Assembly: GCA_030390025.1 (NCBI GenBank)
Contig: CM059432.1
Span: 42,658,001 to 42,722,000, forward strand
Direction of reading: 5' to 3'
DNA length: 64,000 nucleotides
DNA from: Squalus acanthias
Taxonomy: Eukaryota
Under the pieces are notes generated by a model. The model was not told where the DNA came from. It searched no databases and saw only the letters and a program-made list of their open reading frames with translations. Positions 27,084 through 58,900 of the stretch are shown here, piece after piece (the first letter of the stretch is position 1; each line of letters begins with the position of its first letter). Made by a program: the position numbers and the translations under genes.

Positions 27084-29796
27084 ATTGTCTATGATGAGGT
27101 GAATCGAGCATAGGCTAATAAAAGATAGATTAGTCTGAATTTGGAGAAAAAAAGGCTAAGCAATTCATGCTTTGCTTTTATGTAAAAATAGAAAATATTA
27201 AGGGTTATATCCAAAACGTTAATCAATCCTTCTGACTCTTCTTGACATGCTGGGCCTCAACAAACCTTGACTCTTGGATTGTGGATTCTTCCCCCTTACT
27301 GTGGCTACTCCAGATGGCTATACCTTCTACCATATCTCTTGCCCTCTCCGTTGTAATGGTTACATGGCTCTCATTGCCAGTTGCCGTCTCACAGTCTTCA
27401 GGTTTTTAAAACCCGAAGTATCACCTTGTCTCTATCTTTTCCCTATTTTTTTTTAACTCCTTTCAACCTTGGTGGTGTCCTGTACTACAAACCTGGTGTT
27501 TCACCTTGGTTTTTCAATTTAAAAGATACCATTATTATTTTAGATTTCCTGGATTTGTGGGCTTTTTTACTTGTGCTTTGATTTGATATTTGTTTTACTG
27601 TCTTTTTTTTGTGTGAATCATTGTCTTTTTTTGGTTAAAGGTCCTCCTTAATTCTCAAGATCCTACCAGCCAGTATCTAATCCAAAATCACAGACATATT
27701 AGGTAAACATTTAGGGCCATCAGATGATTGTGATAAATCATATCTTTTTCTTCATTTCAGACTGTCTTCTCTATAACCCTCTTGTCTTTGGGGGTTCTGT
27801 CAGCTGAATGGTTTGGGCTCTGTTTCTATGGCAACAGCAAACTATTAAAAATAAGTTTCATCATTTTTATTATGCCATTAGTTTCAGAAAGGATAAGTTA
27901 AACTATTCAAGTTGCAATACTGAAAGAAAGCTGTCCATTCAGGAACACTACTGCTATTCTCTACTTCTCTCCCATATGCAATTTCTTTGAAAATCATTTA
28001 AAAAAAAATAGCAAATGTAATTAATAGATTTGTATAAGTTTTTTTTAAATTAAAAGCATCCATTAGGAAAATATTTGTACATTGTTCATAGAGGCATATA
28101 AAGTTTAATTCATATTCTATATGAAAACATTTCAAAATTAATTTATGATACCCTTCGGTGTATTATATCAATATTCAGGCATAATGTGCATAGAACTTAT
28201 AAGTGAATGGTTGCATATTATTTCTTGATAAACCTGAAATAATGATGCAACAAGAGTTAATCCATACTGATGCTGAATATTGGTGTCTGCATTGACAGCC
28301 ACTGCTGATACAAAAACTGTCCGAAACAGAATAACACTCCTGTTTACATTGGAAATCAAATATAAAATAAACTACGACGGGTCCACATATATGGTAGATA
28401 TAAATTGGGAAGTGACTGCTTAAAAAATCTCATCAGTCTGTGAAACAAATTCTACTGTCACTTGACAAATCAAATAATTTGATCCCTACTGTCTATCATG
28501 GAATGCCCACTGAAAAAAAACACAGAACAATAATCCTGTAAAGATAAAATGGTAAGAAATCACTAAGACCTTGAAATGACTCTCCGATATTAATATGTTT
28601 GTATAAAATCTCTCTGCCTACCTGCTATTTAATGGAGACATTAAACACCTTTTTTAAACAACTTGCTACCTCTGTTAAAAATCAGAGGAACTTTTATTTA
28701 AATACATCAAGTTTACACTAATGTCATAATTTTAAGGCCTAACTTTCTACATAAAATGACACACTCTGGAATGTGTTCGAAACAGTAATCTCTTTCGGGG
28801 TTAAGATACTGTTAATAAATTGTTTTCAAATCCCTCCATGGCCTCGTCCCTCCCTATCTCTGTAATTTCCTTCAGCCCCACAACCCCCCGAGATATCTGC
28901 GCTCCACTAATGCTGCCCTCTTGAGCATCCCTGATTATAATCGCTCAACCATTGGTGGCCGTGCCTTCTGTTGCCTTTTTTAAAATTCGTTCATGGGATG
29001 TGGGCGTCGCTGGCAAGGCCAGTATTTATTGCCCATCCCTAATTGCCCTTTGAGAAGGTGGTGGTGAGCCGCCGCCTTGAACCGCTGTAGTCCATATGGT
29101 GAAGGCACTCCCACAGTGCTGTTAGGGAGGGAGTTCCAGGATTTTGACCCAGCGACGATGAAGGATCGGCGATATACTTCTAAGTCAGGATGGTGTGTGA
29201 CTTGGAGGGGAACTTGGAGGTGGTGGTGTTCCCATGCGCCTGCTGCCCTTGTCCTTCTAGGTGGAAGAGGTCACGGGTTTGGGAGGTGCTGCTGAAGAAG
29301 CCTTGGCAAGTTGCTGCAATGCATCTTGTAGATAGTACATACTGCAGCCACGGTACGCCGGTGGTGGAGGGAGTGAATGTTTAAGGTGGTGGATGGGGTG
29401 CCAATCAAGCGGGCTGCTTTGTCCTGGATGGTGTCGAGCTTCTTCAGTGTTGTTGGAGCTGCACTCATCCAGGCAAGTGGAGAGTATTCCATCACACTCC
29501 TTACTTGTGTCTTGTAGATAGTAGAAGGCTTTGGGGAGTCAGGAGGTGAGACACTTGACGCAGAATACCTAGCCTCAGACCTGCGCTTGTTGTCACAGTA
29601 TTTATGTGGCTGGTCCAGTTAAGTTTCTGGTCAATGGTGACCCCCCCCAGGATGTTGATGGTGGGGGATTCGGCGATGGTAATGCTGTTGAATGTCAAGG
29701 GGCGGTGGTTAGGATCTCGCTTGTTGGAGATGATCATTGCCTGGCATTTGTGTGGCGCGAATGATACCTGCCACTTATCAGCCCAAGTCTGAACGG

Positions 29797-32700
29797 TGAC
29801 GTAATAAAGACTCACTATGCACTTGAACATAAAGCAAGGCTTTAATCAACTTGTAACAAAACATGGAGGTCAAGTTAGCAGTCACTAGCTTCCTGTTTCC
29901 AGATTGTCTCTGCCCAAGGTGGGCCCATGCCTGAGTATTTATACTCCCTGGACGGCGCCCCAGCTGGCCGCCCAGTAGTACTTCCTGAGTTGTTACTTGC
30001 GATTTATGACATTCTTCCTCCCTAAAAGGTTTGGAAGTCCAGTCTTCCTTTAACGGACTAGGTGGACCAGAAATAGCCGCAGACGTTTAGCTCTCTGCTT
30101 GTGACTGGAAGGCACGTCTCCCCGGACCGTGTCCTGGTCCCTGGGTCGCTTGGCCCGTACCGGTAAGTCAGTAGAGTCCGCGTCATCTTGATCATCCTGT
30201 GGAGGACTGGGAATATCATGACTCCGGGTGCGGGTCCCCACAGGTGCTGAGCTGGCCTCATCCCGGGTCGTGGCTGGAGATTGTCCGGCGTCCTGGTTTC
30301 GGGTGGCCATCCTACGGGGAGCGTCCAGCTCCCGGAGTTGATCCGGTAGCGTTGCCGCCAGATCCCCCGATGTCCCAGGCGGGGCGTCATTTTCATAGGG
30401 GTGCGGAGTGTTGATATCATTGTCGGGGGATCCTTCATCATTCGGGCCCGTGTGACCGGTTGGGCAGGGAGCCAGATCTCGGAGCGAGACGGTGGTCTCC
30501 CGGCCATCAGGGTACCGTACGTGCGCATACGTGGGGTTTACCTCCGTTAACTCCACCTCGTCAACGAGAGGGTCGTTTTTGGCAGACCGGACGAACCTCC
30601 GGAGTAGCACCGGGCCGGGAGCCACCAACCATGACGGTAGAGACGTCCCATGTGTAGAGCGACGCCGGAATTTGAAGAATCGCTCATGAGGCGTGACATT
30701 AGTAGATGTGGAGAGAAGAGACCTGATAGAGTGTAACGCGTCGGGGAGCACCGTTTTCCACTGCTGGTCCGGCAGGTTGCGTGACCTTAGTGCCAGACGG
30801 ACAGCGTTCCAGATGATGGCATTGTATCGTTCAACCTGTCCGTTACCGATTGGGTGATATGGTGTCGTCCTACTTGAGGCGATTCCCCGTTGAGAGATAA
30901 CTTTTAAGTTCACTCGACATAAAGGAGGGACCCCGATCAGTGTGGATAAAATTGGCCGTCCCGCAAAGGGAAAAGACCTGATCGAGGCATTTAATTACCG
31001 TAGAGGTAAGCATATTAGGGCAGGGGAAGGCGAAGGGAAAGCGTGAATACTCGTCCACCATCGTAAGTAGGTAGGTGTTCCTTGTCGACGAAGGCAATGG
31101 CCCTTTAAAGTCTATGCTGAGCCTCTGCATAGGCTGCATTGCATGTATGAGTAAGCCATCTGATGGGCGAAAGAATTGTGGTTTCAGTTCTGCACAAATC
31201 CTACAGGAGGAGCATGTTTTCTTTACGTCCTCGGTTGAAAATGGTAGATTTTTGGAGCGCACAAAGTGCAACATGCGGGTCACACCAGGATGGCATAAGT
31301 CCATATGCAAATCCACCAGAGTCGACGTTGACATTGAGGAGCAAAATGCCCGTGTGAAGGTATCTGGGGCCACGTTCTGTTTGCCGGGTCGGTAACAGAT
31401 AGTATATCCAAAGGCAGCCAGCTCCATCCTCCAGAGTTGAATTTTATTATTTTTGATTTTCGTGCGCCTCCGGTTATCCAACATGAAGGCCACAGAGCGC
31501 TGGTCAGTTATAAGCGTAAAATGACGCCGAGCAAGAAAATGACCCCATTGGCGTACAGCCTCGATGATGGCCGTAGCCTCCTTCTCGACGGGGGGGTAAT
31601 GGAGCTCGCTACCCTGCAAGGTTCTGGATAGGAATGCCACGGGTCGGCCACCTTGATTCAAGGTAGCGGAGATCGCCACCTCCGATGCATCGCATTCGAC
31701 CACAAAAGGAAGATTTGTGTCAATGGAGCGAAGCGTGGCTTTCTCCAGCTGTCGTTTGAGGAGGTTGAAGGCAGAAATAGCCGTAGCTTCCAATGGAAAA
31801 GACTTCGCATGGAGCAGGGGCAGTATTTTATCGGAGAAGTGTGGTATCCATTTTGCGTAATAAGCAAACATGCCAAGTGCCCGACGAAGAGAGCCGAGGT
31901 TCGTCGGGGGAGGGAGCTCCTGAAGTGGACGAAGTCGCTCTGGGTCCGGTTTAATAACACCGTTGCCCACCCAGTAGCCAAGAATGTTCACCGATGGCAC
32001 CGACTTCACCGATTTGGATTCGTTTAACGTTAAGTGGCGACGGCGGAGTACGTCAAAAAATCTCTGAAGATTGGCGTCATGCTCCTTTTGATCATGGCCG
32101 GCAATAGTGATATTGTCTAAATACGGAAAGGTATCCGTCAAGTTCTCTTGCCAGACTAGGCCATCCATGGCCCGTTGGAAGACGGCCACCCCATTGGTGA
32201 CCCCGAATGGAAGGCGGCGAAACTGGAAAAGCCGACCATTGGCCTCAAAGGCCGTATACTTCTTGTCGGCGTCTTGCAGTGGCACCTGATGGTACGCGCT
32301 TTTTAAATCGAAGGTCGAGAATACCTTGTATTTGGCAAGGTTGTTGACCATGTCATCTATGCGTGGCAGCGGGTAGGCATCCAGATCGGTATATAGATTA
32401 ATAGTCTGCGAATAATCGATACACAGACGTTTTTTATGTTATTTTAAGGGATTCCTCACGATGACGACCTGAGCCCGCCAGGGAGATGAACATGGCTCGA
32501 TAATACCGTCGACTAAAAGGCGAGAGATTTCCGCCTCAATAAACGCTCGATCATCTTGGCTAAAGCGCCGCGATTTGGTGGCTATGGGTTTACAGCGGGG
32601 GGGAAGATTGGCAAACAGGGAGGGTTCACCGAGTAAGGCCGCCGAGAGTGCACAAAACGGCACCTTAGAAATGGTAAGCTCCGACCTTGACCCTCCAAAC

Positions 32701-34304
32701 TCAAAAGTGATCTTCTTGTGCTGCTTCTGGAAGTCCTATCCCAGAAGCACATCGCTGCATAAGTTTGCGAGTACTCCGAGCCGGGTGGAGAGATACGTGC
32801 GGCCGTTGAGGATGAGGTTGACCAGACAGAAGCCAGAAGAATTGGTGGTCAGAGTCGTCAGAGCCATTGCGATCTCCCTGTCCGAGGGATAAATGTGCAG
32901 TTTTAACCTGTTGACAGCCCGCTTACTAATGAAGCTGCCAGAGCTGCAGGAGTCGATTAGCGCGCTTAGAGTGTGCCCATTTACTGAAACCTTCGTGGCT
33001 GCATGGGACAAACTTTGGGGAAAAACAGCCGTGATGGGAGGAGGGGCAATTTTCCCTTCGGCAACTGTAGCCTTAACAGTAGTTCTTGGGGGAGGAGCAG
33101 CTCCATAGATAGCAGCTGTGAAGCTAACAGGAGCTCTCGACCGGTATACTTTAGAGGAGCGGCCTTTCTTGTTAGCAAAGGCCCGTGACTGGCATACCTT
33201 GGAAAAGTGTCCTTTCTTGCTGCAATGATTGCAGGTCACATTACGAGCCGGGCAAAATTTTCTGTGATGGCACGCCCCTCCACAAAAGAAACACTTTCTT
33301 CCTGATTGCCAGGATGCTGCTAGGGCGGGGTCGTCATCAGCGAAGGCCTCTAGGGTAGGGTCGTCGTCTGTTAGAGTAGAGTCAACATCAGTGGGGGCAT
33401 CCGCCCGAGACCTACCGAAAGACTCATTAAAGGAGATAGCCGCCGCCCGTGCACGTGGTGGGAGATAAGTGTCTGCATTTTTCTTGGCCAAGTCCAAGGA
33501 ACACGCCTGGTCATAAGCAGCCCGTAAATTGAGGGTTTTATTTTCCAGCAGGCGCTGACGTATAAAAGGGGACGCGATTCCATTGATAAAGGAATCGCGG
33601 ATTAGTTCCTCTTGATACTGTTCAGCTGTAACTGCTTTAAGGTCACAATCCTTGCTGAGCCTGCGAAGTTTCTGGAGAAATTCATCGAGTGATTCCCCAG
33701 GCTGCTGCCGAGTTGTGGCCAGTAGGTGTCGAGCAAAGATTTCATTTGGGGACTTGACATATAGCTGCTGTAAGATTTCGATAGCAGTGTCATAGTCTAT
33801 ACAGTCCTCAATATAATCATACACATGAGGAGACACGTAGTTGATAAGCATTCGTAACTTATTAGGGACATCCGCCCCACATTCTTCAAGAAAGTTGCTA
33901 AAGGTACGAAACCAATGCTTCCATACCTTTGCTGCCGCAGGTGCATTCGGGTCCAGGTCGAGACGAGCGGGTCGAAGGAGTTTTTCCATGATGGATCAGT
34001 TTCTTGCCCAAGTTCCCTTCTGTGGTTCGAGTTGCAGCTGGTTGTTCCGAATCACCCAAAGCGTGGAGACGATATCAAGTTGATTAAATTGACGTAATAA
34101 AGACTCACTACGCACTTGAACATAAAGCAAGGCTTTAATCAACTTGTAACAAAACATGGAGGTCTAGTTAGCAGTCACTAGCTTCCTGTTTCCAGATTGT
34201 CTCTGCCCAAGGTGGGCCCATGCCTGAGTATTTATACTCCCTGGACGGCGCCCCAGCTGGCCGCCCAGTAGTACTTCCTGAGTTGTTACTTGCGATTTAT
34301 GACA
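29797..34304 (-). mobile_element. Full-length Gypsy/Ty3 LTR retrotransposon
   Basis: LTRs at 34090-34304 and 29797-30011 (215 bp, TG..CA, 2 differences). TSD AACGG at 29792-29796 and 34305-34309. PPT agggaggaagaa at 30012-30023, TATA box at 34229-34236. Confidence 0.97.
30050..33989 (-). pseudogene. Gypsy gag-pol polyprotein (Gag with 2 CCHC knuckles, protease, RT, RNase H, integrase), disabled
   Basis: Gag CFFCGGACHHRKFC and CNHCSKKGHFSKVC; protease LIDSCSS; RT LPFG..YLDN; RNase H CDAS..EKEA..TD; integrase HHCC and D-D-E. Single frame with in-frame stops at 32736-32738 and 32439-32441 and a frameshift near 30895. Confidence 0.92.
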
Positions 34305-37300
34305 AACGGCGTCCAGGTCTTGTTGCATGCGGGCATGGACTGCTTCATTATCTGAGGAGTTGTGAGTGGCACTGAACACTGTGCGGTCATCAGCGAACTT
34401 CCCCATTTCTGACCTTATGTTGGAGGGAAGATCATTGATGAAGCAGCTGAAGATGGTTGGGCCTAGGACACTGCCCTGAGTAACTCCTGCAGTGATGTCC
34501 TGGGGCTGTGATGATTGACCTTCAACCACCACAACCATCTTCCTTTGTGCTAGGTATGACTCCAGCCAGTGGAGAGTTGTCCCCCGATTCCCATTGACTT
34601 CAGTTTTGCTTGGGCTCCTTGATGCCAGACTCGGTCAAATGCTGCTTTGATGTCAAGGACAGTCACTCTCACCTCACCTCTCGAATTCAGCTCCTTTGTC
34701 CATGTTTGGACTAAGGCTGTAGTGAGGTTGGGAGCTGAGGGAACCCAAACTGGGCATCAGTGAGCAGGTTATTACCGCTTGATAGCGCTGTCGATGACAC
34801 ATTCCATCTCTTCGCTGATGATTGATAGTAGACTGATGGAGCGGTAATTGGCTGTATTGGATTTGTCCTGCTTTTTGTGGACAGGACATACCTGTGCAGT
34901 TTTCCACATTGTCGGGTAGATGCCAGTGTTGTAGCTGTACTGGAACAGCTTGGCTAGAGGCGCGGCTAGTTCTGGAGCACAAGTCTTCAGCACGACAGCC
35001 GGGATGTTGTCGGGGCTCATAGCCTTTGCTGTATCCAGTGCGCTCAGCCGTTTCTTGATATCAAATGGAGTGAATTGAATTGGCTGAAGACTGGCTTCTG
35101 TGATGGTGGGGACCTCAGGAGGAGGCCGATATGGATCATCCACTCGGCACTTCTGGCTGAAGATGGTTGCAAACGCATCAGCCTTGTCTTTTGCACTCAC
35201 GTGCTGGGCTCCACCATCACTGAGGATTGGGATATTCATGGAGCCTCCTCCTCCTGTTAGTTGTTTAATGGTCCACCACCATTGACGACTGGATGTAGCA
35301 GTACTGCAGAGCTTTGATTTGATCCATTGATTGTGGGACCTTTTAGACCGGTCTGTAGCATGCTGCTTCTGCTTTTTAGCATGCATGTAGTTCTGTGTTG
35401 CAGCTTCCCCAGGTTCGCACCTCATTTTTAGGTACGCCTGGTGCTGCTCCTGGCAGGCTCTTCTACACTCCTTATTGAACCAGGGTTGTTCCCCTGGCTT
35501 GGTGGTAATGGTAGAGTGAATGATATGCCGGGCCATGAGGTTACAGATTGTGGTGGAATACAATTCTGCTGCTGCTGATGGCCCACAGCGCCTCATGGAT
35601 GCCCAGTTTTGAGCTGCTAGATCTGTTCTGAATGTATCCCATTTAGCACGGTGGTAGTGCCACACAACACGAGGGAGGGTGTCCTCAGTGTGAAGATGGG
35701 ACTTCATCTGCACAATGACTGTGCGGTGGTCACTGCTACCAATACTGTCATGGACAGATGCATCTGCAACAGGTAGATTGGTGAGGACGAGGTCAAGTAG
35801 GTTTTTCCCTCGTGTTGGTTCTCTCGCCACCTGTCAAAACCCAGACTGGCAGCTATGTCCTTCAGGACTCGGCCAGCTCGGTCAGTAGTGGTGCTACCGA
35901 GCCACTCCTGGTGATGGACATTGAAGTTTCCCACCCGCAGTACATTCTGTGCCCTTGCTACTCTCAGTGCTTCTTCCAAGTTGTGTTCAACATTGGAGGA
36001 GTACTGATTCATCAGCTGAGGGAGGGTGGTAGGTGGTAATCAGCAGGAGGTTTCCTTGCCCATGCTTGTCCTGAAGCCATGAGACTTTATGGGGTCCAGA
36101 GTCAATGTTGAGGACTCCCAGGGCCACTCCTTCCCAACTGTATACCACTGTGTCGCCTCCCCTGGTGGGTCTATCCTGCCGGTGGGACAGGACATAACCA
36201 GGGATGGTGATGGAGGAGTTTGGGACATTGGCTGAAAGGTATGATTCTGTGAGTATGACTATGTCAGTCTGTGGGACAGCTCTCCCAATTTTGGCACAAG
36301 TCCCTAGATGTTGGTGAGGAGGGTCGACTGGGCTGGGTGTGCCGTTGTCATGTCGGTAGCTGGTGCCAAGGTTGATGACGCTTGGTCCGTCCGGTTTTTC
36401 TTATTAGTATTGTGTTTCGTAGCAGCTTCCTAGGCCATTTCAGAGGGCAGTTAGGAGTCAACCACATTGCTGTGGGTCTTAGGCCCTAAGCTCTGGAATT
36501 CCCTGCCTAAACCTCGCCGCCTCGCTACCTCTCTTTCCTCCTTTAAGACGCTCCTTAAAACCTACCTCTTTGACCAAGCTTTTGGTCACCTGCCCTAATT
36601 TCTCCTTATGTGGCTCGGTGTCAAATTATTTGTCATATAATACTGCTGTGCAGCGCCTTGGGATGTTTTACTATGTTAAAGGTGCTATATAAATACACGT
36701 TGTTGTTGTTGTTCTTGTGGTTTCTGATGCCAGTGTATCCTTCAATGTGTTACTGCCTTGTAACATACTGCAAATTGTGAGCTGCCTTGTATGTAATGCA
36801 ACATTACCTATTATAGGAAAATGTTATCCTTCAGGTCACATGCTAGAATTGGCTTCAATACCTCTTTTTATCCATTGCCAAAATACTACAAAGTCACAAT
36901 TTTCCTCAGCATATTGATGCAATGATGTCACTGCTGAAAAAACAAATTGGAAAAAAAACCAGCTAGTTTATACTATTTTTAAAATAATTGAGTTAAAGGC
37001 TGTAATTTATTTGCAGGATTTAGAGGTTAGTCAGTGTACTCTGTAACTCATTGAGGAATTGATGAATTCTAGCTACATATTCTATTCTATCTATGATGAC
37101 AACACTATAGAATACCATGAATAATGTTTGCTTTCTATTAGTTCAAGTAAAAGTTATTTTGTAGTAAATTGTTTTTTGGTGATCTGTCATAAATATCATG
37201 TGTATCATCATTTATTTAATGATTATCATGATACAGCAGAAGCCATCTGGTAATGATATGGATGTGGGGAGGTTACTGGAATCTATCATCAGACAGAGTG

Positions 37301-42964: not shown

Positions 42965-45900
42965 GACCCGCAACGGGACCAACATCCTTGCGGGGAGGTT
43001 TGCTAGTGCTGTTGGGGGGGGTTTAAACTAACTTGGCAGGGGGATGGGATACAGAGTGGAGCTATAGTAGGGGGTGATGCACAGCCAAATATAGAGGAAA
43101 AAACAAGTCAGCCTGAAAGGCAGTGCAAATATGTAACGGCACAAGGGAGTATGGCAAGGCTGGATGGCATTTATTTTAATGCAAGGCGTCTTGCGAGTAA
43201 GGCTGATGAATTGAAGGTGTTGATGAACACATGAGAGTATGATATTGTTCCTATCACAGACTTGGTTGAGGGAGAGGCAGGACTGGCAGCTCAATATTCT
43301 GGGGTATAGAATCTTCAGGCGAGACAGAGGGGGGTGTAAAAGAGGAGAGGGTGTCGCAATATTAATCAAGGAGTCAATTACTTCTGTAAGGAGGGATGAT
43401 ATCTTAGTAGGTTCCTCTAATGAGGCCATATGGGTAGAACTTAAAAACAAAAAGGGGGCAAGCACTTTGCTGGGAGTGTACTATAGGCCCCCAAACAGTC
43501 AGGGGAAGATAGAGGAACAGATATGTAGGCAAATCTCAGAGAAGTGTAGAAATAATAGGATAATAATAGTAGGGGATTTCAACTTCTCCAATATATAGGA
43601 TATATATGGGATAGTCAGAGTGTGAAAGGCTTAGAGGGTGCGGAATTCTTAAAGTGCATCCAGGAGAGATTTTTGAGCCAGCATGTAGAAAGTCCTACAA
43701 GAGAGGGGGCGGTACTGGACCTAATTCTAGGGAATGTAGCCAGGCAAGTGGTAGAAGTGTCAGTAGGAGAGCATTTTGGTGACAGTGACCATAATTTGGT
43801 GAGATTTAAGGTAGTCATGGAAAAGGACAAAGATGGACCGGAAATAAAGGTTCTAAATTGGGGGAAGGCCGATTTTAATATGATAAGGCAGGATCTGGCC
43901 AAAGTGGACTGGGATCAGCTACTTGTAGTAAAATCCACATCAGAGCAGTGGGAGTCTTTCAGAAAGGAAATAGAGAGAGTACAATGCCAACATGTTCCCG
44001 TAAAGGTCAAGGGTGGGACCAACAAGCCCAGGGAACCCTGGATGTCGAGGGATATACAAGAATGGATTAGAAAAAAAAGGGAGGCTTTTGGCAGATACAA
44101 AGGACTAAAAACAGTGGCAGCCCTAGAGGAGTATAGAAAGTGCACTTAAAAAAAGAAATTAGGAGAGCGAAGAGGGGGCATGAATAAACACTGGCGGGCA
44201 AAATAAAGGAAAATCCCAAGGTGTTTTATAAGTATATTAAGGGCAAGAGGATAACCAGGGAAAGAGTAGGGCCCATTAGGAACCAAAGTGGCAATCTGTG
44301 TGTAGAGCCGGAAGATGTGGGTGAGGTTTTAAATGAATATTTTGCATCTGTGTTCATTATGGAGAAGGACGATGTAGGCATAGAAATCAGGCAGGGGGAT
44401 TGTGATATACTTGAACAAATTAGTATTGAGAGGGAGGAGGTACTAGCGGTTTTAGCGAGCTTAAAAGTGGATAAATCCCCAGGCCCAGACGAGATGTATC
44501 CCAGGCTGCTGTGTGAGGCAAGGGAGGAGATTGCAGGGGCTCTGACACAAATTTTCAGTTCCTCTCTGGCCACAGGGGAGGTGCCAGAGGACTGGAGGAC
44601 AGCTAACGTAGTACCATGATTCAAGAAGGGTAGTAGGGATAAACCAGGGAATTACAGGCCAGTAGCCTAACATCAGTGGTAGGGAAATTATTGGAAAAAA
44701 TTCTGAGGGACAGAATTAGTCTCTACTTGGAGAGGCAAGGATTAATCAAGTATAGTCAGCATGGCTTTGTCAGGGGGATATCATGTCTAACCAATTTGAT
44801 CGAATTTTTCGAGGGGGTGACCAGGTGTGTGGATGAGGGTAGTGCAGTTGATGTAGTCTACATGGACTTCAGTAAGGCTTTTGACAAAGTCCCGCATGGG
44901 AGACTGGTCAAGAAGGTAAGAGCCCATGGGATCCAGGGCAATTTGGCACATTGGATCCAAAATTGGCTTAGTGGCAGGAGGCAGAGGGTGATGGTCGAAG
45001 GTTGTTTTTGTGACTGGAAGCCTGTGTCCAGTGGTGTACCGCAAGGATCAGTGCTGAGTCCTTTGCTGTCTGTAGTGTACATTAATGATTTAGATATGAA
45101 TGTAGGAGGTATGATCAGTAAGTTCGCAGATGACACGAAAATTGGTGGAGTGGTAAATAGCGAGGAGGGAAGCCTCAGGCTACAGGACGATATAGATGGC
45201 TGGGCAGAACAGTGGCAAATGGAATTTAACCCTGAAAAGTGTGAGTTGATGCATTTTGGGAGGACTAACATGGCAAGGGAATACGCAATGAATGGTAGGA
45301 CCCTAGGAAGGACAGAGGATCAGAGGGACCTTGGTGTGCATGTACATAGATCCCTGAAGGCAGCAGGACAGGTAGATAAGGTGGTTAAAAAGGCATATGG
45401 GATACTTGCCTTCATTAGCCGAGGCATAGAATCTAAGAGCAGGGAGGTTATGATGGAGCTGTACAAAACACTAGTTAGGCCACAGTTGGAATACTGTGTG
45501 CAGTTCTGGTCGCCACACTATAGGAAGGATGTGATTGCATTGGAGAGGGTGCAGAGGAGATTCACCAGGATGTTACCTGGGCTGCAGAGGAGATTCACCA
45601 GGATGTTACGTGGGCTGGAGTGTTTCAGCTATGAAGAGAGACTGGACAGGCTGGGGTTGTTTTCCTTAGAGCAGAGAAGGCTGAGGGGGGGGGTTGATTG
45701 ACATGTACAAAATTATGAGGGGCATAGATAGGGTCGATAGAAAGGAACTTTTTCCCTTGGTAGAGGGGTCAATAACCAGGCGGCATTGTTTCAAGGTAAG
45801 GGGCAGGAGGTTTAGAGGGGATTTGAGGGAAAACTTTTTTCACCCAGAGGGTGGTTGGAATCTGGAACTCACTGCCTGAAAGGGTGGTAGAGGCAGGAAC

Positions 45901-46397: not shown

Positions 46398-47749
46398 CTG
46401 GAGGTGCTGTCGAAGAAGCCTTGGGGAGTTGCTGCAGTGCATCTTGTAGATGGTACACACTGCAGCCACGGTACGCCGGTGTGGAGGGAGTTAATGTTTA
46501 AGGTGGTGGATGGGGTGCCAATCAAGCAGGCTGCTTTGTCTTGGATGGTGTCGAGCTTCTTGAGTGTTGTTGGAGCTGCACTCATCCGGGCAAGTGGAGA
46601 GTATTCCATCACACTCCTTACTTGTGTCTTGTAGATAGTAGAAGGCTTTGGGGAGTCAGGAGGTGAGACACTTGCCACAGAATACCTAGCCTCTGACCTG
46701 CTCTTGTTGTCACAGTATTTATGTGGCTGGTCCAGTTAAGTTTCTGGTCAATGGTGACTTCCAGGATATTCATGGTGGGGAACTCGGTCATTGTAAATGC
46801 TGTTGAATGTAAAGGAGTGGTGGTTAGACTCTCTCTTGTTGGCGATAGTCATTGTCTGGCACTTGTGTGGCACGAATGTTACTTGTCACTTATCAGCCAA
46901 AGCCTGAATGTGGTCCAGGTCTTGCTACATGTGGGCATGAACTGTTTCATTATCTGAGGAGTTGCAAATGGCACTGAACACTGTGCAGTCATCAGCGAAC
47001 ATCCCCATTTCTGGCCTTATGATGGAGGGAAGGTCATTGATGAAGTAGCGGAAGATGCTTGAGCCGAGGATACTGGGCCGTGTAGCCTATCCTGCTCATA
47101 TTTCGTGTGTCCAATTCTGTTAGGTTCAGGAGATGGTTCTGTGATAGTAGATTGGCGGTTAGGATCAGATCAGCCATGATCTTATTGAATGGCGGAGCAG
47201 GCTCGAGGTGCCAATTGGCCTACTCCTGCTCCTATTTCTTATGTTCTTATGTATGCCCTGAAGAACTCCTGCATCGATGTCCTGGGGCTGAGATGATTGG
47301 CTTCCAACAACCACAACCATCTTCCTTTGTGCTAGGTATGACTCCAGCCAGTGGAGAGTTTCTCCCTGATTCCCATTGACTTCAATTTTACTAGGGCTCC
47401 TTGATGCCACACTTGGTCAAATACTGCCTTGATGTCAAGGGCAGTCACTCTCACCTCACCTCTGGAATTCAGCTCTTTTTGTTCATGTTTGGACCAAGGC
47501 TGTAATGAGATCTGGAGCCGAGTGGTCCTTGTGGAACCCAAACTGAGCATTGGTGAGCAGGTTATTTGTGAGTAAGTGCCGCTTGATAGCACTGAAGATG
47601 ACACCTTCCATCACTTTGCTGCTGATTGAGAGTAGACTGATGGGCTGGTAATTGGCCAGATTGGATTTGTCCTGCTTTTTGTGGACAGGACATGCCTGGG
47701 CAGTTTTCCACATTGTCGGGTAGATGCCAGAGTTGTAGCTGTACTGGAA
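46398..47749 (-). mobile_element. Family B LINE RT fragment with a short CR1 3'-UTR insertion at 47076-47255
   Basis: Matches the other family B copies; the host sequence gatactg|ccctgaagaactcc rejoins across the insertion. Confidence 0.88.
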
Positions 47750-50700
47750 CAGGAACAGCCAGAAGTCATGGTCAATGTGGGAACCAATGGCATAGGTAGG
47801 AAAAGGGTTGATGTTCTGCAGTCAGAGTTTCAGGATCTAGGGAGGAAGTTAAAAAGCAGGACCTCAAAAATAGTAATCTCTGGATTACTTCCAGTGCCAC
47901 GTGCTAGTAAGTATAGGAATACTAGGATAAAACAGGTTAATGGGTTGTTGGAGACGTGGTGTGGGAAGGAGGACTTCAGATTCCTGGAGCATTGGGACCA
48001 GATCTGGGGCAGGAGGGACCTGCTCAAGATGGACAAGTTGCACCTCAACAGAGCTGGGACTAATGTCCTCACAGGGAGGTTAACTAGTGCTGTGGGGGAG
48101 GGTATAATCTAATTTGACAGGGGGATGGGCATCAGGATGAAACATTTGAGAGGAGAAACAAGGTACGCAGAGGACTGGCAGACACGAATAGCACTGGAGT
48201 AAAGAATAGTTCAGAAATAGGTGGGATCAAAAAGTGGGCAAATATGAGGCAGTGTAAGATGGTTTTGGAGTTCATATGCGTAAATGCACGTAGCCTGGTA
48301 AACAAGGTTGGTGAGCTGCAGGCACAAGTCATGACATGGGACTACGATATAGTGGCAATAACAGAGACCTGGCTCAAAGAAGGGGAGGATTGGGAACTTA
48401 ATATTCCTGACTACAAGATATTCAGGAAAGGTAGGGGAGGAAAAAGAGGAAGGGTAGCAGTATTGATCAAAGAAACTATTATAGCACTGAAAAGGGATGA
48501 TGTAGTTGAGGAGTCAAAGACAGAATCTATTTGCTTAGAATTAAGGCACAATAGAGGAGCTATTGCTTTACTAGGTGTATACGATAGGCCACCAAATAGT
48601 GGGAAGGAGATAGAGGAGCAAATTACAGAAAGATGCAAGTACTACAGAGTAGTGATAGTAGGGGACTTCAATTATCCTAATATAGACTAGGGTAGCAACA
48701 GGGTAAAGAGGGGGACGAATTCCTGAAATGTGTACAAAAGAACTTTCTTGATCAATGTGTTTCCAGCCCAACAAGGAAGGAAGCAGGGTTGGATCTAGTT
48801 CTGGGGAATGAAGTGGGGCAAGTGTAGCATGTTTTAGTCGGGTAGTATTTGGGGAACAGTGATCATAATATCATCAGGTTTAGAATAGTTATGGAAAAGG
48901 AACAATCAAGTGTAAAAATACATAACTGGAGGAGAGCTAATTTCAATTTAAAAAGGGATCTCGCCCAGGTGGATTGGAATCAAAATTTGGTAGGCAAAAC
49001 AGTAATGAAACAATGGGAGGCCTTCAAAGAGGAGATGGTTTGAGTAGACACATTCTCACGAAGGGGGAAAGGAAGTATAACCAAAGCTAGAGTTCCTTGG
49101 ATGACTAAAGATATAGAGATTAAAATGAAACAGAAAAAGGAGGCTTATGACCAATGTACGGTTGATAATACAGTAGAGAACCAAAATGAATACAGAAAGT
49201 ACAGAGGAGATTTAAAAAAGGGAGTAAGATGGGAAAAGAGGGAGTATGAGAATAGATTAGCGGCGAACATAAAAGGGAACCCAAAAGTCTTTTATAAACA
49301 TAAATAATAAAAGGGTAGTCAAAGGAAGGGAGGGGTCAATTAGGAACCACAAAGGAGATCTTACGGATGCAGAAGGCATGGCTGAGGTACTAATTGAGTT
49401 CTTTGCATCTGTCTTCACTAGAGAAGAGGATGCTGCCAACATAGCAGTAAAGTAGGAGGCAGGAGCGATATTGGATAGGATAAAAATAGGTAAAGAGGAG
49501 GTACTTAAAAGCTTGGCAATACTCAAAGTAGAAAAGTTATCCGGTCCGGTTGGGATGCATCCTAGGTTACTGAGGGATGTAAGGGTGGAAATTATGGAGG
49601 CTCTGGCCACAATCTTCCAATCCTCCTTAGATAGTGGGGTGGTGCCAGAGGACTGGAGGATTGCAAATGTTACACCCCTGTTAAAAGGGAAGAAGGATAA
49701 ACTTGGCAACTACAGGCCAGTCCGTGGTGGGGAAACTTTTGGAAACATTAATGCGGGACAAAATGAATTGGCATTTGGAAAAGTTTGGGCTAATAACTGA
49801 AAGTCAGCACGAATTTGTTAAAGGAAAATCGTGTTTGACTAACCTGATTGAGTTCTTTGATGAAGTAATGGAGAGAGTTGATGAGGGTAGTGCGATTGAT
49901 GTTGCGCATATGGACTTTCAAAAGGCATTTGACAAAGTACCACATAATAGACTTGTAAGCAAAATTAAAGCCCTTGGGATTAAAGGGACCGTGGCAGCGT
50001 AGATACAAAATTATCTAAGGGACAGAAAGCAGAGAGTAGCGGTGAACAGGCGCTTTTCAGACTGGAGGGAAGTATACAGTAGTGTTCCCCAGGGGTCAGT
50101 ATTAGGACCACTGCTCTTTTTGATCTATATTAATGACCTGGACTTGAGTACACTGGCCATAATTTCAAAGTTTACATATGACGCAAAACTCAGAAATGTA
50201 GTAAACAATGAGAATAGTAACAGACTTCAGGTGGACATAGACAGACTGGAGAAATGGACAGATACAAGGCAGATGAAATTTAATGCATGGAAGTGGGAAG
50301 TGATACATTTTAGTAGGAAGAATGAGGAGAGGCAATATAAACTAAACGGCACCATTTTTAAATGGGTGCAGGAACAGAGAGACCTGTTTTTTTTTATTCA
50401 TTCATGGGATGTGGGCGTCACTGGCAAGGCCAGCATTTATTGCTCATCCCTTGTTGCCCTTGAGAAGGTGGTGGTGAGCCGCCGCCTTGAACCACTGCAG
50501 TCTGTGTGGTGAGGGTACTCCCACAGTGCTGTAAGGTAGGGAGTTCCAGAATTTTGACCCAGTGACGATAAAAGAATGGTGATATACCTCCAAGTCAGGA
50601 TGGTGTGTGACTTGGAGGGTAACTTGGAGGTGGTGGTGTTCCCATGCGCCTGCTGTCCTTGTCCTTCTAGGTGGTAGAGGTCGCAGGTTTGGGAGGTGCT

Positions 50701-51780
50701 GCTGAAGAAGCCTTGGTGAGTTGCTGCTGTGCATCTTGTGGATGGTACACACTGCAGCCACGGTACGCCAGTGGTGGAGGGAGTGAATGTTTAAGGTGGT
50801 GGATGGGGTGCCAATCAAGCGGGCTGCTTTGTCCTGGATGGTGTCGAGCTTCTTGAGTGTTGTTGGAGCTGCACTCATCCAGGCAAGTGGAGAGTATTCC
50901 ATCACACTCCTTACTTGTGCCTTGTAGATGGTGGAAAGGCTTTGGGGAGTCAGGAGGTGAGACACTCGCCGCAGAATACCCAGCCTCTGACCTGCTCTTG
51001 TTGTAACAGTATTTATGTGGCTGGCCCAGTTAAGTTTCTGGTCAATGGTGACCCCTAGGATGTTGATGGTGGGGGATTCGGTGATGGTAATGCCGTTGAA
51101 TGTCAAGGGGCAGTGGTTAGACTCTCGCTTGTTGGAGATAGTCATTGCCTGGCACTTGTGTGGCGTGAATGTGACCTGCCACTTATCAGCGCAAGCCTGG
51201 ATGTCGTCCAGGTCTTGTTGCATGCGGGCATAGACTGCTTCATTATCTGAGGAGTTGCGAATGGCACTGAACATTGTGCAGTCATCAGCGAACATCCCCA
51301 TTTCTGACCTTATGATGAAGGGAAGGTCATTGATGAAGCAGCTGAAGATGGTTGGGCCTAGGACACTGCCCTGAGGAACTCCTGCAGCGATGTCCTGGGG
51401 ATGAGATGATTGATCTCAAACCACCACAAATCTTTGAAAGTGGCAGGAAAAGTTGAGAAGGCTGCTAAAAGAGCATATGGGATCATTGGCTTTATTAATA
51501 GAGGCATAGAGTACAAAAGCAAGGGCGCTGTGCTAAACCTTTATAAAACACTGGTTAGGCCTTAGCTGGAGTATTGTGTTCATTCCTGAGTGCCACACTT
51601 TAGGAAAATTGTCAAGGCCTTAGAGAGGGTGCAGAAGAGATTTACTAGAAAGGTATAAGGAATGAGGGACTTCAGTTATGTTGAGAGACTGGAGAAGCTG
51701 GGGTTGTTATTTAATCAGAGAAGGTTAAGAGGAGATTTGGTAGAGGGGTCAGTAACCAGAGAATGTAGATTTTAGGTGAT
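47750..51780 (+). mobile_element. CR1 family A LINE with ORF1 SGNH-esterase part and disabled ORF2, interrupted by family B at 50387-51430
   Basis: ORF1 VNVGTN..IVISGLLP..DKLHLN; ORF2 EN (CVNARSL, AITETWL) and RT motifs; resumes at ~51430. Confidence 0.9.
50387..51430 (-). mobile_element. Family B LINE 3' part
   Basis: 285-aa ORF at 50444-51301 (MFADDCT..) and an oligo(A) tail at 50387-50396. Confidence 0.9.
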
Positions 51781-54263: not shown

Positions 54264-55524
54264 ATTTTTTTAAAATTCGTTCCTGGGATATGGGCGTCGC
54301 TGGCAAGGCCAGCATTTATTGCCCATCCCTAATTGCCCTTGAGAAGGTGGAGGTGAGCCGCCACCTTGAACCGCTGCAGTCCTTGTGAAGGTACTCGCAC
54401 AGTGCTGTTAGGAGGGAGTTCTATGATTTTAACCCAGCGACGATGAAGGAACGACGATCCTTTGATCTGATCCGTTGATTGTGGGATCGCTTCGCTCTGT
54501 CTATAGCATGCTGCTTTTGCTATTTAGCATGCATGTGTTGCAGCTTCCCCAGGTTGGCATCTCATTTTTAGGTACGCTTGGTGCTGCTCCTGGCATGCTC
54601 TTCTGCACTCCTCATTGAACCAGGGTTGGTCCCCTGGCTTGATGGTAATGATCGAGTGAGGGATATGCCAGGCCTTGAGGTTACAGATTGTGGTGGTATA
54701 CAATTCTGCTGCTGCTGATGGCCCTCAGCGCCTCATGGATGCCCAGTTTTGAGTTGCTAGATCTGTTCTGAATCTATCCCATTTAGCACAGTGGTAGTGC
54801 CACACAACACTTTGGAGGGTGTCCTCATTGTGAAGAGGGGACTTTGTCTCCACAAGGTCTGTGCGGTGGTCATTGCTACAAATACTGTCATGGACAGATG
54901 CATCTGAGGTAGATTGGTGAGGATGAGGTCAAGTAGGTTTTTCCCTCGTGTTAGTTCTCTCACCACCTGCCGCAGGCCCAGTCTGGCAGCTGTTTCCTTC
55001 AGGACTAAGCCAGCCCGGTCAGTAGTGGTGCTATTGAGCCACTCCTGGTGATGGACATTGAAGTCCCCCACCCAGAGTACATTCTGTGCCCTTGCTACTC
55101 TCAGTGCTTCTTCCAAGTGGTGTTCAACATGGAGGAGTACTGATTCATCAGCTGAGGGAGGGTGGTAATCAGCAGGAGGTTTCTTTGCCCATGCTTGATC
55201 TGAAACCATGAGACTTCATGGGGTCCGGAGTCAATGTTGAGGACACCCAGGGCCACTCCCTCCCGACTGTATACCACTGTGCCGCCACCTCTGGTGGGTC
55301 TGTCCTGCTGGTGGGACAGGACATACCCAGGGATGGTGATGGAAGAGTTTGGGACATTGGCTGAAAGGTATGATTCTGTGTGAAGATCTGACTATGCCAG
55401 GCTGTTACTTGACTAGTCTGTGGGACAGCTCTCCCAATTTTGGCACAAGTCCCCAGATGTTAGTGAGGAGGATTTTGCAGGGTTGACTGGGCTGGGTGTG
55501 ATGTTGTCGTGTCCGAAGCCGGTG
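54264..55524 (-). mobile_element. Family B LINE with internal deletion of RT (EN region joined to the 3' tail), inside an older antisense CR1 relic (~54185-55945)
   Basis: 3' tail at 54264-54458 abuts the EN/linker region from ~54460; EN motif WVGDFNVHHQEWL. Confidence 0.85.
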
Positions 55525-55946: not shown

Positions 55947-58900
55947 TCCGATGGGACGGGCTTCACTTGGCCAGTGCTGGGGCTAGAGTCCTGACGGATC
56001 ATATAACTAGGGCTGCAGAGAGGGCTTTAAACTAACTAGTGGGGGGGAGGTTCCTAGAGAGCAAATAATAAAAATGACAACAGAGAAGGTCATAGACTTA
56101 GGTAGCAGTGGGGAAATTAAAAACCAGAGTGTGTCAGGAAGGGGCAGAAGGTATGGTGTAAAAGGTAAAGTAATAAAAAGGGCAAAAGCAGGAACTAAGT
56201 GTCACAAAACATATTTGAAAGTTCTCTATCTGAATGCACGTAGCATTCGTAACAAAATAGACGAGTTAATGGCACAAATAACTACATATGGGTATGATCT
56301 TGTGGCCATTACAGAAACATGGCTGCAGGTTGACAATGCCTGGGAATTAAACATACCAGGTTATTTAATGATCAGGAAGGACAGACAGGCAGGAAGGAAG
56401 TGAGGTGGGGTGGCTATGTTAATAAAGGAAGGAATCACTGTAATACAGAGAAATGATATTGGGTCAAAAGATCAGGATAATGAAACAGTTTGGGTGGAGA
56501 TAAGGAATAATAAGGGGAAAAAAAACACTAGTGGGCGTAGTCTATAGGCCTCCGAACAGTTGCAACTCTGTTGGACGGAGTATCAATCAGGAAATAGTTG
56601 AGGCTTGTAATAAGGGAACATCTATAATTATGGGGGATTTTAACTATCATATTAATTGGACAAATCAAATTGGGCAGGGCTGCCTTGAGGATGAGTTCAT
56701 TGAGTGTATTAGGGATGGGTTTCTTGAGCAGTATGTAACTGAACCGACCAGGGGGCAAGCAACCTTAGATCTGGTCCTGTGTAACGAGACAGGATTAATT
56801 AAAAATGTCCTAGTAAAGGATCCCCTTGGAATGAGTGACCATAACATGGTTGAATTCCATATTCAATTAGAGGGTGAGAAGGTTGGATCTCAAACAAGCG
56901 TGCTAAGCTTGAATAAAGGAGACTATGAAGGTATGTGAGCGGAATTGAGTAGAGTGGATTGGGAAAATAGATTAAAGGGTACGACGATACATGATCAGTG
57001 GTGTACATTTAAGGAGTTATTTTACAACTTCCAAAAAATATATATTCCACTGAGAAGAAAAGGGTGTAAAAGAAAAGACAGTCATCCGTGGCTAAGTAAA
57101 GAAATTAAGGATAGTGTTCGACTAAAAACAAGGACGAATAAAGTAGCCAAATCTAGTGGGAGGATAGAGGATTGGGAAAACTTTAAAAGACAGCAAAAAA
57201 TAACAAAAAGATTGATTAAGAAAGGGAAGATAGATTATGAAAGTAAATTAGCAAAAAATATAAAAACAGATAGTAAGAGTTTTTATAGTTATATAAAAAG
57301 AAAAAGGGTGGCTAAAGTAAATGTTGGTCCCTTAGAGGATGAGACCGGGAAATTAATGGTGGGAAATATGGAGATGGCAAATACACTGAATGGATATTTT
57401 GTATCAGTCTTTACACTAAGAATATCCCAACACTGGACAAACAGGGGGCTATGGAGGGGAGGAGCTAAACACGATCAAAATCACTAAGGAAGTGGTACTC
57501 GGTAAAATAATGGGACTCAAGGCAGATAAATCACCTGGACCTGATGGCTTACATCCTGGGGTCTTGAGGGAAGTGGCGGTAGGGATTGTGGATGCATTGG
57601 TAATAATTTTCCAAAACTCCCTGGACTCAGCAAAGATCCCGGCAGACTGGAAAACTGCTAATGTAACACCCTTATTTAAAAAGGGCAGTAGACAGAAGGC
57701 TAAAAACTATAGACCGGTTAGCCTAACATCTGTGGTAGGTAAAATTTTGGAGTCCATTATTAAGGAGACAGTAACGGGACATTTGGATAATCATAATTTA
57801 ATAGGACAAAGTCAGCATGGTTTTATGAAGGGGAAGTCATGTTTGACAAATTTGCTGGAGTTCTTTGAGGAAGTAACATACAGGGTGGATAAAGGGGAAC
57901 CAGTGGATGTGGTGTATTTAGACTTCCAAAAGGCATTTGACAAGGTGCCACACAAAAGATTATTGCTTAAGATAAAAAATCACGGGATTGGGGGTAATAT
58001 TCTGGCATGGATAGAGGATTGGCTATCTAACAGAAGGCAGAGAGTTGGGATAAATGGTTCATTCTCAGACTGGCAATCAGTAACTAGCGGTGTTCCGCAG
58101 GGGTCAGTGCTGGGTCCCCAACTCTTTACAATCTATATTAACGATTTGGAGGAGGGGATCGAGTGTAACTTATCAAAGTTTGCAGATGATACTAAGATGG
58201 GAGGGAAAGTAGTGAGTGAGGAGGACATAAAAAATCTGCAAGGGGACATAGACAGGCTAAGTAAGTGGGCAGAGATTTGGCAGATGGAATACAATACTAG
58301 AAAGTGTGAGGTTATGCACTTTGGCAGGAAAAATAGTAGAGCAAGTTATTATCTTAATGGCAAGGAACTGGAAAGTACTGAAGTACAAAGGGATCTGGGG
58401 GTCCTGGTGCACGAAACTCAAAAGGTTAGTATGCAGGTGCAGCAAGTGATTAAGAAGGCCAATGGAATGTTGGCTTTCATTGCTAGGGGGATAGAATATA
58501 AAAATAGGGAGGTATTGCTTCAGTTGTACAAGGTATTGATGAGACCGCACCTGGAATACTGCATACAGTTTTGGTGTCCATACTTAAGAAAAGACATACT
58601 TGCTCTCGAGTCAGTACAAAGAAGGTTCACTCGGTTAATCCCGGGGATGAGGGGATGGACATATGAGGAGAGGTTGGGTAGATTGGGACTCTACTCATTG
58701 GAGTTCAGAAGAATGAGAGGCGATCTTATTGAAACATATAAGATTGTGAAGGGTTGGATCGGGTGGATGCGGGGAGGATGTTCCCGATGATGGGTGAAAC
58801 TAGAACTAGGGGGCATAGTCTTAGAATAAGGGGCTGCTCTTTCAAAACTGAGATGAGAAGGAACTACTTCACTCAGAGGGTGGTAGGTCCATGGAATATG

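Follow-up and report, generated by a model that had tools for sequence, protein, structure and literature searches.

The window, by which we mean the whole stretch of 64,000 nucleotides of Squalus acanthias DNA that was analysed, contains a Ty3/Gypsy LTR retrotransposon on its minus strand: the order PR-RT-RNase H-IN lies between LTRs bounded by TG...CA, with a polypurine tract (PPT) and a target duplication. Its parts are as follows.

34305..34309, other copy 29792-29796, minus strand: target site duplication of 5 bp, CCGTT
34304-34090, minus strand: 5' LTR, TG...CA, 215 nt
32736..33989, minus strand: gag with two CCHC knuckles, and protease, with an in-frame stop at the end in this copy
30870..32735, minus strand: RT, RNase H and the start of integrase, from the translation and Pfam
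30050..30994, minus strand: remainder of integrase and C-terminal tail, without a chromodomain match
30012..30023, minus strand: polypurine tract
30011-29797, minus strand: 3' LTR, with a second copy of the paired piece described below at 29841-29853

The RT-IN region of this copy is broken by a second in-frame stop at about 32440 and a change of frame at about 30870-30994. Its two LTRs differ at 2 of 215 positions. The host genome holds at least 609 5' LTR-PBS junctions of the family (matches to a 34-place pattern), LTR pairs are about 99% alike, and all of the scored 265-nt matches to the window element (40/40) are identical; judged by these sequences, the family is young, abundant and recently active in Squalus acanthias. 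The search of viral contigs for relatives of the element found none.

The element sits in a LINE-like repeat (29282-29793 and 34311-34948 in the window), both halves of which match a second copy at about 46400-47752. Further pieces of non-LTR retrotransposons with RT or endonuclease domains lie at 44643-45701, 50444-51415, 54757-55215 and 57420-58790.

The report concerns the primer binding site (PBS) behind the 5' LTR and the features around it.

34236-34229, minus strand: TATAAATA box, putative, TATA-like; kept in host-genome relatives and mostly absent elsewhere
34146-34134, minus strand: LTR piece complementary to the PBS, the predicted self-primer, reading CAAGTTGATTAAA
34144, minus strand: initiator-like A, the first base of the 11-nt core, predicted from the sequence
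34134..34139, minus strand: ATTAAA, likely poly(A) signal and 3' end of the predicted primer, at LTR position 166
between 34134 and 34133, minus strand: predicted primer cut
34112..34133, minus strand: short predicted stem right after the primer piece, bulged in the window copy
34092..34113, minus strand: predicted 9-bp hairpin at the U5 end
34089, minus strand: one-base spacer, A, between LTR end and PBS
34088-34076, minus strand: primer binding site of self-complementary type, without TGG, reading TTTAATCAACTTG

An earlier note on this DNA had reported, in the place of the PBS, 13 nt that lack TGG and are exactly complementary to the element's own LTR. Re-reading confirmed this: TTTAATCAACTTG is the exact reverse complement of CAAGTTGATTAAA over 13 nt, with a loop of 45 nt. 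Within the window the 13-mer occurs in the two LTRs only, apart from the inverted copy at the PBS place, and a chance match in a 215-nt LTR of the same composition is expected at about 5e-6. The poly(A) hexamer that had been placed inside the paired piece forms the last six bases of the LTR piece, and the TATA box said to lie about 80 nt upstream corresponds to TATAAATA, 83 nt before the paired piece. Each of the three folds predicts the 13-bp helix in its centroid structure; taken as wholes, the segments fold with unremarkable energies (z of -1.4, 0.2 and 0.0).

The pairing was scored in a set of 91 loci, namely the best 80 of 152 confirmed metagenome loci, 10 loci from the host genome and the window copy; 86 of the 91 were tested, and five were dropped as having fewer than 90 nt upstream. 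The PBS was anchored one base after the CA of the LTR, and its first 10 bases were scored against the upstream LTR. Nine or ten of these bases are paired in 65/86 loci compared with 13/516 dinucleotide shuffles, and all ten in 53/86 compared with 0/516. The unit used below is nevertheless the family and not the locus, because many of the metagenome loci come from a few contig series; the families themselves share ancestry. L115 was merged into the window family as a duplicate, and L096 stands for the family of L067.

Covariation between PBS and LTR in related families, the check that the earlier note had named for its reading, came out strongly: the PBS is self-complementary in 29/35 families, and the 29 carry 25 different core 11-mers. 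Five of the six other families have a truncated, interrupted or out-of-range LTR (the hairpin of L090 falls outside the scanned range, the LTR of L095 and L110 is missing from the contig, that of L065 and L099 is interrupted or replaced), and the sixth, L059/L062, has an unrecognisable 5' end. Wherever the pairing is found, it begins one base past the CA of the LTR, and the spacer base is A in 27/29 families. At core positions 1-11 the 29 families show Watson-Crick pairs in 316/319 cells, 61 double changes and no G-U pair, a zero that is partly built in by the selection of positions 1-10 on Watson-Crick matches. Positions 11-16, which were not used in choosing the register, are paired in 130/174 cells, compared with a cross-family mean of 78 and a maximum of 102 in 5000, and at positions 17-26 the pairing falls to chance level. 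At the LTR edge the duplex thus ends sharply, and its far end is ragged, at 11-18 nt; it is never shorter than 11 nt. G-U pairs number 3 at positions 11-14 across the 29 families, compared with 22/121 in the neighbouring stem.

None of the 29 hairpin families has TGG at the start of the PBS. Among other Gypsy-type loci of the host genome, taken as a control, a TGG-type PBS is present in 16/20; on a looser version of the pairing test 15 of these 16 score 7/10 or less, the lone exception (L239) reaching 9/10 in the wider search. The control loci L231-L250 include at least three other compact Gypsy families with a TGG-type PBS, one of them young, with LTRs 98-100% alike.

Several single cases may be recorded here. 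In the eight copies of the L036-L046 family, Gag is only 60% identical to that of the window element and the LTR is otherwise apparently unrelated; the 13-nt primer piece and the PBS are identical to those of the window element. L102 carries, upstream of gag, two PBS copies behind one LTR piece, which arose from duplication of the U5-PBS junction. In L037, L055, L096 and others the gag start codon stands a few bases past the PBS, so that the primer duplex nearly overlaps the translation start.

Beside the primer duplex, the stem at the predicted cut is unbroken over at least 4 bp in 23/29 families and tolerates G-U; its mean length is 4.17 bp, compared with 2.85 +/- 0.20 in shuffles (maximum 3.45 of 500). 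A G-U-tolerant stem in this place would suit a structured cut site at the primer end. Two further parts of the "pretzel" known from Tf1 were looked for across families, and neither the third duplex downstream of the PBS (p 0.58) nor the U5-end stem (p 0.77) is enriched.

We hold it likely that the element, and its clade with it, primes reverse transcription with RNA derived from its own LTR instead of a tRNA. In this respect the covariation in related families, which is strong, supports the tRNA-independent self-priming put forward in the earlier note. By analogy with Tf1, the LTR piece would fold back onto the PBS; the RNA would be cut right behind ...AUUAAA, probably by the RNase H of the element, beside the short stem that starts at the cut; and the new 3' OH, then at the LTR edge, would prime minus-strand DNA. 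Plus-strand synthesis would copy the primer and rewrite the PBS in every cycle, and first-strand transfer would use the short segment between the cut and the poly(A) site. We infer the copying of the self-primer into the PBS from three properties of the complement: it is strict, it stands in the place of the primer 3' end, and it tracks the LTR of its own element. Rewriting in each cycle would explain why the match is strictly Watson-Crick and why it stops at about 18 nt. The cut, the primer and the individual steps are predictions from the sequence and from the likeness to Tf1.

Copies that differ from the family at the PBS give a mixed picture. L046 has one change common to both LTRs and the matching change in the PBS, with an intact target duplication; it is one of the eight copies of its family (1/8), and judged by its sequence it is the end state expected of a self-primer copied into the PBS. 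Among about 609 junctions of the host family there are 12 PBS variants: one is compensated, six give G-U and five a mismatch. That only 1/12 is compensated, and this in a chimeric copy, we count against self-priming; the copy has no target duplication, and its 3' LTR is without the change. A solo LTR of the host family shows the same LTR change. At the one LTR position searched, two 5' LTR variants were found, both uncompensated. Most PBS variants of the host family probably arose once the copies had been inserted. In L113, an older relative, the pairing has two mismatches, which we likewise count against self-priming. L129 (G000:C3218) is a chimeric copy with LTRs that differ at about 13 places and no target duplication. 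L130, L131 and L132, on different contigs and with different LTR haplotypes, have a common PBS change at position 7 that gives G-U, perhaps inherited through replication. Repair of quasi-palindromes in the DNA was rejected as an explanation: it could account for individual compensated copies, but the register fixed across families lies beyond it.

The helix could instead do nothing more than hide the poly(A) signal of the 5' LTR from premature 3' end formation, with priming left to something else. The LTR of the window element has a single AATAAA/ATTAAA hexamer, the ATTAAA at position 166; it stands 44 nt before the LTR end, upstream of a GT-rich stretch, and from this place we take it for the likely poly(A) signal. 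In 18/29 families the last six bases of the paired piece are such a hexamer, ATTAAA in 13 and AATAAA in 5, and a local helix is possible only at the 5' LTR, both of which would be expected of masking. Other families end in GTTAAA, TTTAAA, TGAAGA or GATAGA, some with a free hexamer in the loop, and two families, ending in TGAAGA or GATAGA, still pair over 15 bp. Since 11/29 families are without a canonical hexamer at the paired end, masking cannot, on these sequences, be the general purpose of the helix. Masking also leaves the 3' register one base from the LTR end and the near absence of G-U unexplained, and no other primer site is present. We therefore consider a helix that only masks improbable; where the hexamer overlaps, masking would be at most a secondary by-product, and in the window element it may be a real side effect. 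The masking hairpin offered in the earlier note is thus weakly supported as the purpose of the helix, though it may keep a place in this element. It is similarly improbable that the PBS pairs with the copy of the piece in the 3' LTR, whether on the same RNA or on a co-packaged one, and that the cut or trimming takes place there. The paired piece is present in both LTRs, and the 3' copy has bases upstream of it, which would explain pairing upstream of the -11 initiator discussed below; a cut there, however, would deprive that molecule of the 3' repeat on which strand transfer depends, and no precedent appeared in the available text of the literature searched. Very improbable, finally, is priming by a host tRNA fragment or another small RNA, with the LTR match secondary. 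Half-tRNA primers are known in Copia lineages (PMC6317226, in the part available), and the tRNA comparison set (the best 63 of 369,166 candidates, giving 39 distinct sequences) spans 5 isotypes only; against this, 25 different 11-mers each match their own LTR, the best anchored match to the 39 distinct host tRNA sequences of these 5 isotypes is 4-7 nt, and 33900-34400 has no Rfam match.

Self-priming by the LTR piece being the preferred reading, the start of the RNA decides whether its mode differs from that of Tf1. AG[TCA] at -11, counted back from the end of the paired piece, follows a T-rich run in 21/29 families; elsewhere between -30 and -6 no position has it in more than 5. AG[TCA] after a T-rich run resembles an initiator. 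The block shared by five aligned host-genome copies begins exactly at the A at -11, and the pairing is never below 11 nt. Signs in the other direction are that in about half of the families the pairing extends at least to -16, that the last paired base is a pyrimidine in 16/26, and that all five aligned host-genome copies have a TATA-like box: TATAAATA at -102 in the window element, retained in L111 and nearly so in L113, and GATAAATA at -84 in L112 and L114. Pairing well past -11, the pyrimidine as last base and the retained box we count against a 5'-terminal primer. The sequence evidence on the start site is thus in conflict. An internal self-primer, with RNA starting about 30 nt after the TATA box and an unpaired leader of about 60 nt, is a sub-case of self-priming and was the reading of the earlier note; in that case hiding the 5' poly(A) signal would also depend on the same helix, and removal of the primer by RNase H would set the 18-nt limit. 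The retained boxes and the long, often pyrimidine-ended pairing speak for it, as do the alternative start sites of fission-yeast Tf2 (PMC5341516, as far as the available text goes). Against it, examination of up to 154 nt gave no TATA-like match in 24/29 families, and the matches in the remaining 5/29 lie at five different distances; the shared block that begins at the -11 A and the minimum of 11 nt point the same way. To judge from these signs, we give a short primer that lies at the 5' end of the RNA, or no more than a few bases away, about an even chance, and hold it somewhat likelier than a primer with a leader; one that carries about 60 nt of leader from the TATA box is possible, at clearly less than an even chance. 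A short primer whose starts are scattered would fit the ceiling of 18 nt, and so would a longer one copied only as far as RNase H allows.

Some further observations concern the same region. In L112 and L114 an 8-9-bp inverted repeat holds in its loop the TATA-like box, which precedes the end of the paired piece by about 84 nt. The LTRs and 5' leaders of 48 copies were compared, and the copies are too star-like for the start site to be traced by linkage. Inherited LTR variants fall within positions 159-215 at 1/21 sites (binomial p 0.013) and private ones at 15/77; the two do not differ significantly (Fisher p 0.18), and avoidance of 159-215 was dropped as start-site evidence, inherited variants not being significantly below private ones. 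Among the sequencing runs listed there was none of RNA; in the contigs of 8 of 15 runs no start, end or poly(A) junction was seen, and breaks near 34118 are k-mer effects. The TATA-bearing part of the window, 34208-34239, has far deeper coverage in two sequencing runs, with contigs resembling the L111-type LTR, which suggests many solo LTRs of an older subfamily.

The distinct mode of self-priming proposed in the earlier note is therefore to be divided: self-priming is supported, and distinctness from Tf1 is at most possible, Tf1 also requiring a cut. The only difference would be the long 5' leader, which rests on the TATA assignment. A fuller account is rather unlikely in our estimate: that an animal clade invented self-priming apart from Tf1/sushi with a poly(A) signal as the primer end, that the host-genome primer lies about 60 nt inside a TATA-driven transcript, and that one helix silences the 5' signal, primes once cut and fixes the length of the strand-transfer repeat.

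The hairpin-bearing elements form one RT-RNase H clade (support 100/99 in a 29-row tree, 100 in a 76-row tree). In the best tree this clade stands with compact TGG-PBS elements, presumably Mag, a label given from motifs and not from named references, and away from chromovirus-like proxies, on a 95/90 branch; joining it to these proxies is not rejected by the AU test (p 0.285), the comparators being unnamed proteins labelled by Pfam SH3_Tf2-1. A chromodomain has no Pfam match in the C-terminal frame of the window element, is found in 0/10 scanned homologues, and is absent from the precomputed domain lists of the 120 matches listed. Named homologues come from shrimp, copepod, nematode, tunicates, mussel, soft coral and cartilaginous fishes; protein searches for a name of the clade returned matches without informative names.

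The pairing is real and clade-wide and, as the sequences suggest, most likely reflects Tf1-like self-priming in a separate animal Gypsy clade. If so, a large animal clade without a chromodomain would be another probable origin of self-priming. Its elements would not depend on the supply of tRNA and would escape silencing through tRNA fragments that target the PBS, and tRNA-based annotation would miss the clade or mark it "no PBS". The overlap of primer end and poly(A) hexamer bears on whether a self-primer may lie inside the RNA. Self-priming is mentioned in some Gypsy entries of Repbase, and the clade may already be annotated there. In the available parts of the literature searched (including PMC3601003, PMC6934838 and PMC2774666), self-priming in a chromodomain-less animal Gypsy clade was not found; there it is tied to the Tf1/sushi/Tcn1 chromoviruses and the Copia TAR lineage.

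Among known systems, the Mag lineage is close in build. Two CCHC arrays in Gag are a feature of this lineage. Mag-lineage Gypsy elements (A/B/C, Cigr-1 and MolGy clades; PMC6238403, PMC8556966) share with ours, by the available text, the compact size, short LTRs, two CCHC knuckles, the 5-bp target duplication and the wide spread in aquatic animals, and our clade is on the same side of the 95/90 branch as the compact TGG-PBS host-genome elements. It differs in forming a clade of its own (100/99) without a tRNA-type PBS, matched to no named clade; a motif search of 5 PMC6238403 supplementary files and the literature found no named Mag-type references. The fungal GalEa elements with a "conserved hairpin site" and Dictyostelium Skipper are likewise LTR elements without a tRNA site (PMC5445492, PMC5006619), but their motifs, as described in the available sections, are without an LTR complement, whereas here the partner is in the LTR. 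The TAR (Houba/Osr-1) lineage of plants is an independent lineage predicted to self-prime (PMC6317226, available part), from which self-priming is known to recur; it differs in belonging to the Copia superfamily and to plants, and an overlap with the poly(A) signal is not mentioned in that part.

The likeness is greatest to Tf1/Tf2 of Schizosaccharomyces pombe, Tj1, Tosmo1-3 and the Tf1/sushi group including plant Tcn1, which also lack a tRNA site, have a PBS complementary to an 11-nt core in the 5' LTR, and obtain the primer by a cut (PMC7175516, PMC4600332, PMC10085805 and PMC6317226, in their available parts). In Tf1 RNase H cuts between bases 11 and 12 and the first 11 bases prime (PMC7175516), and three duplexes around the PBS make up the "pretzel" (PMC10085805), as given in the available text of both. 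Our clade differs in being without a chromodomain, in pairing over 11-18 nt, in a primer end that usually falls on a poly(A) hexamer, and in that only one of the two "pretzel" side duplexes is evident. Judged by sequence, it would work like Tf1, but a chromodomain and the full "pretzel" are not found in it, and it should not be assigned to the Tf1/sushi group; the priming chemistry itself is likely that known from Tf1.
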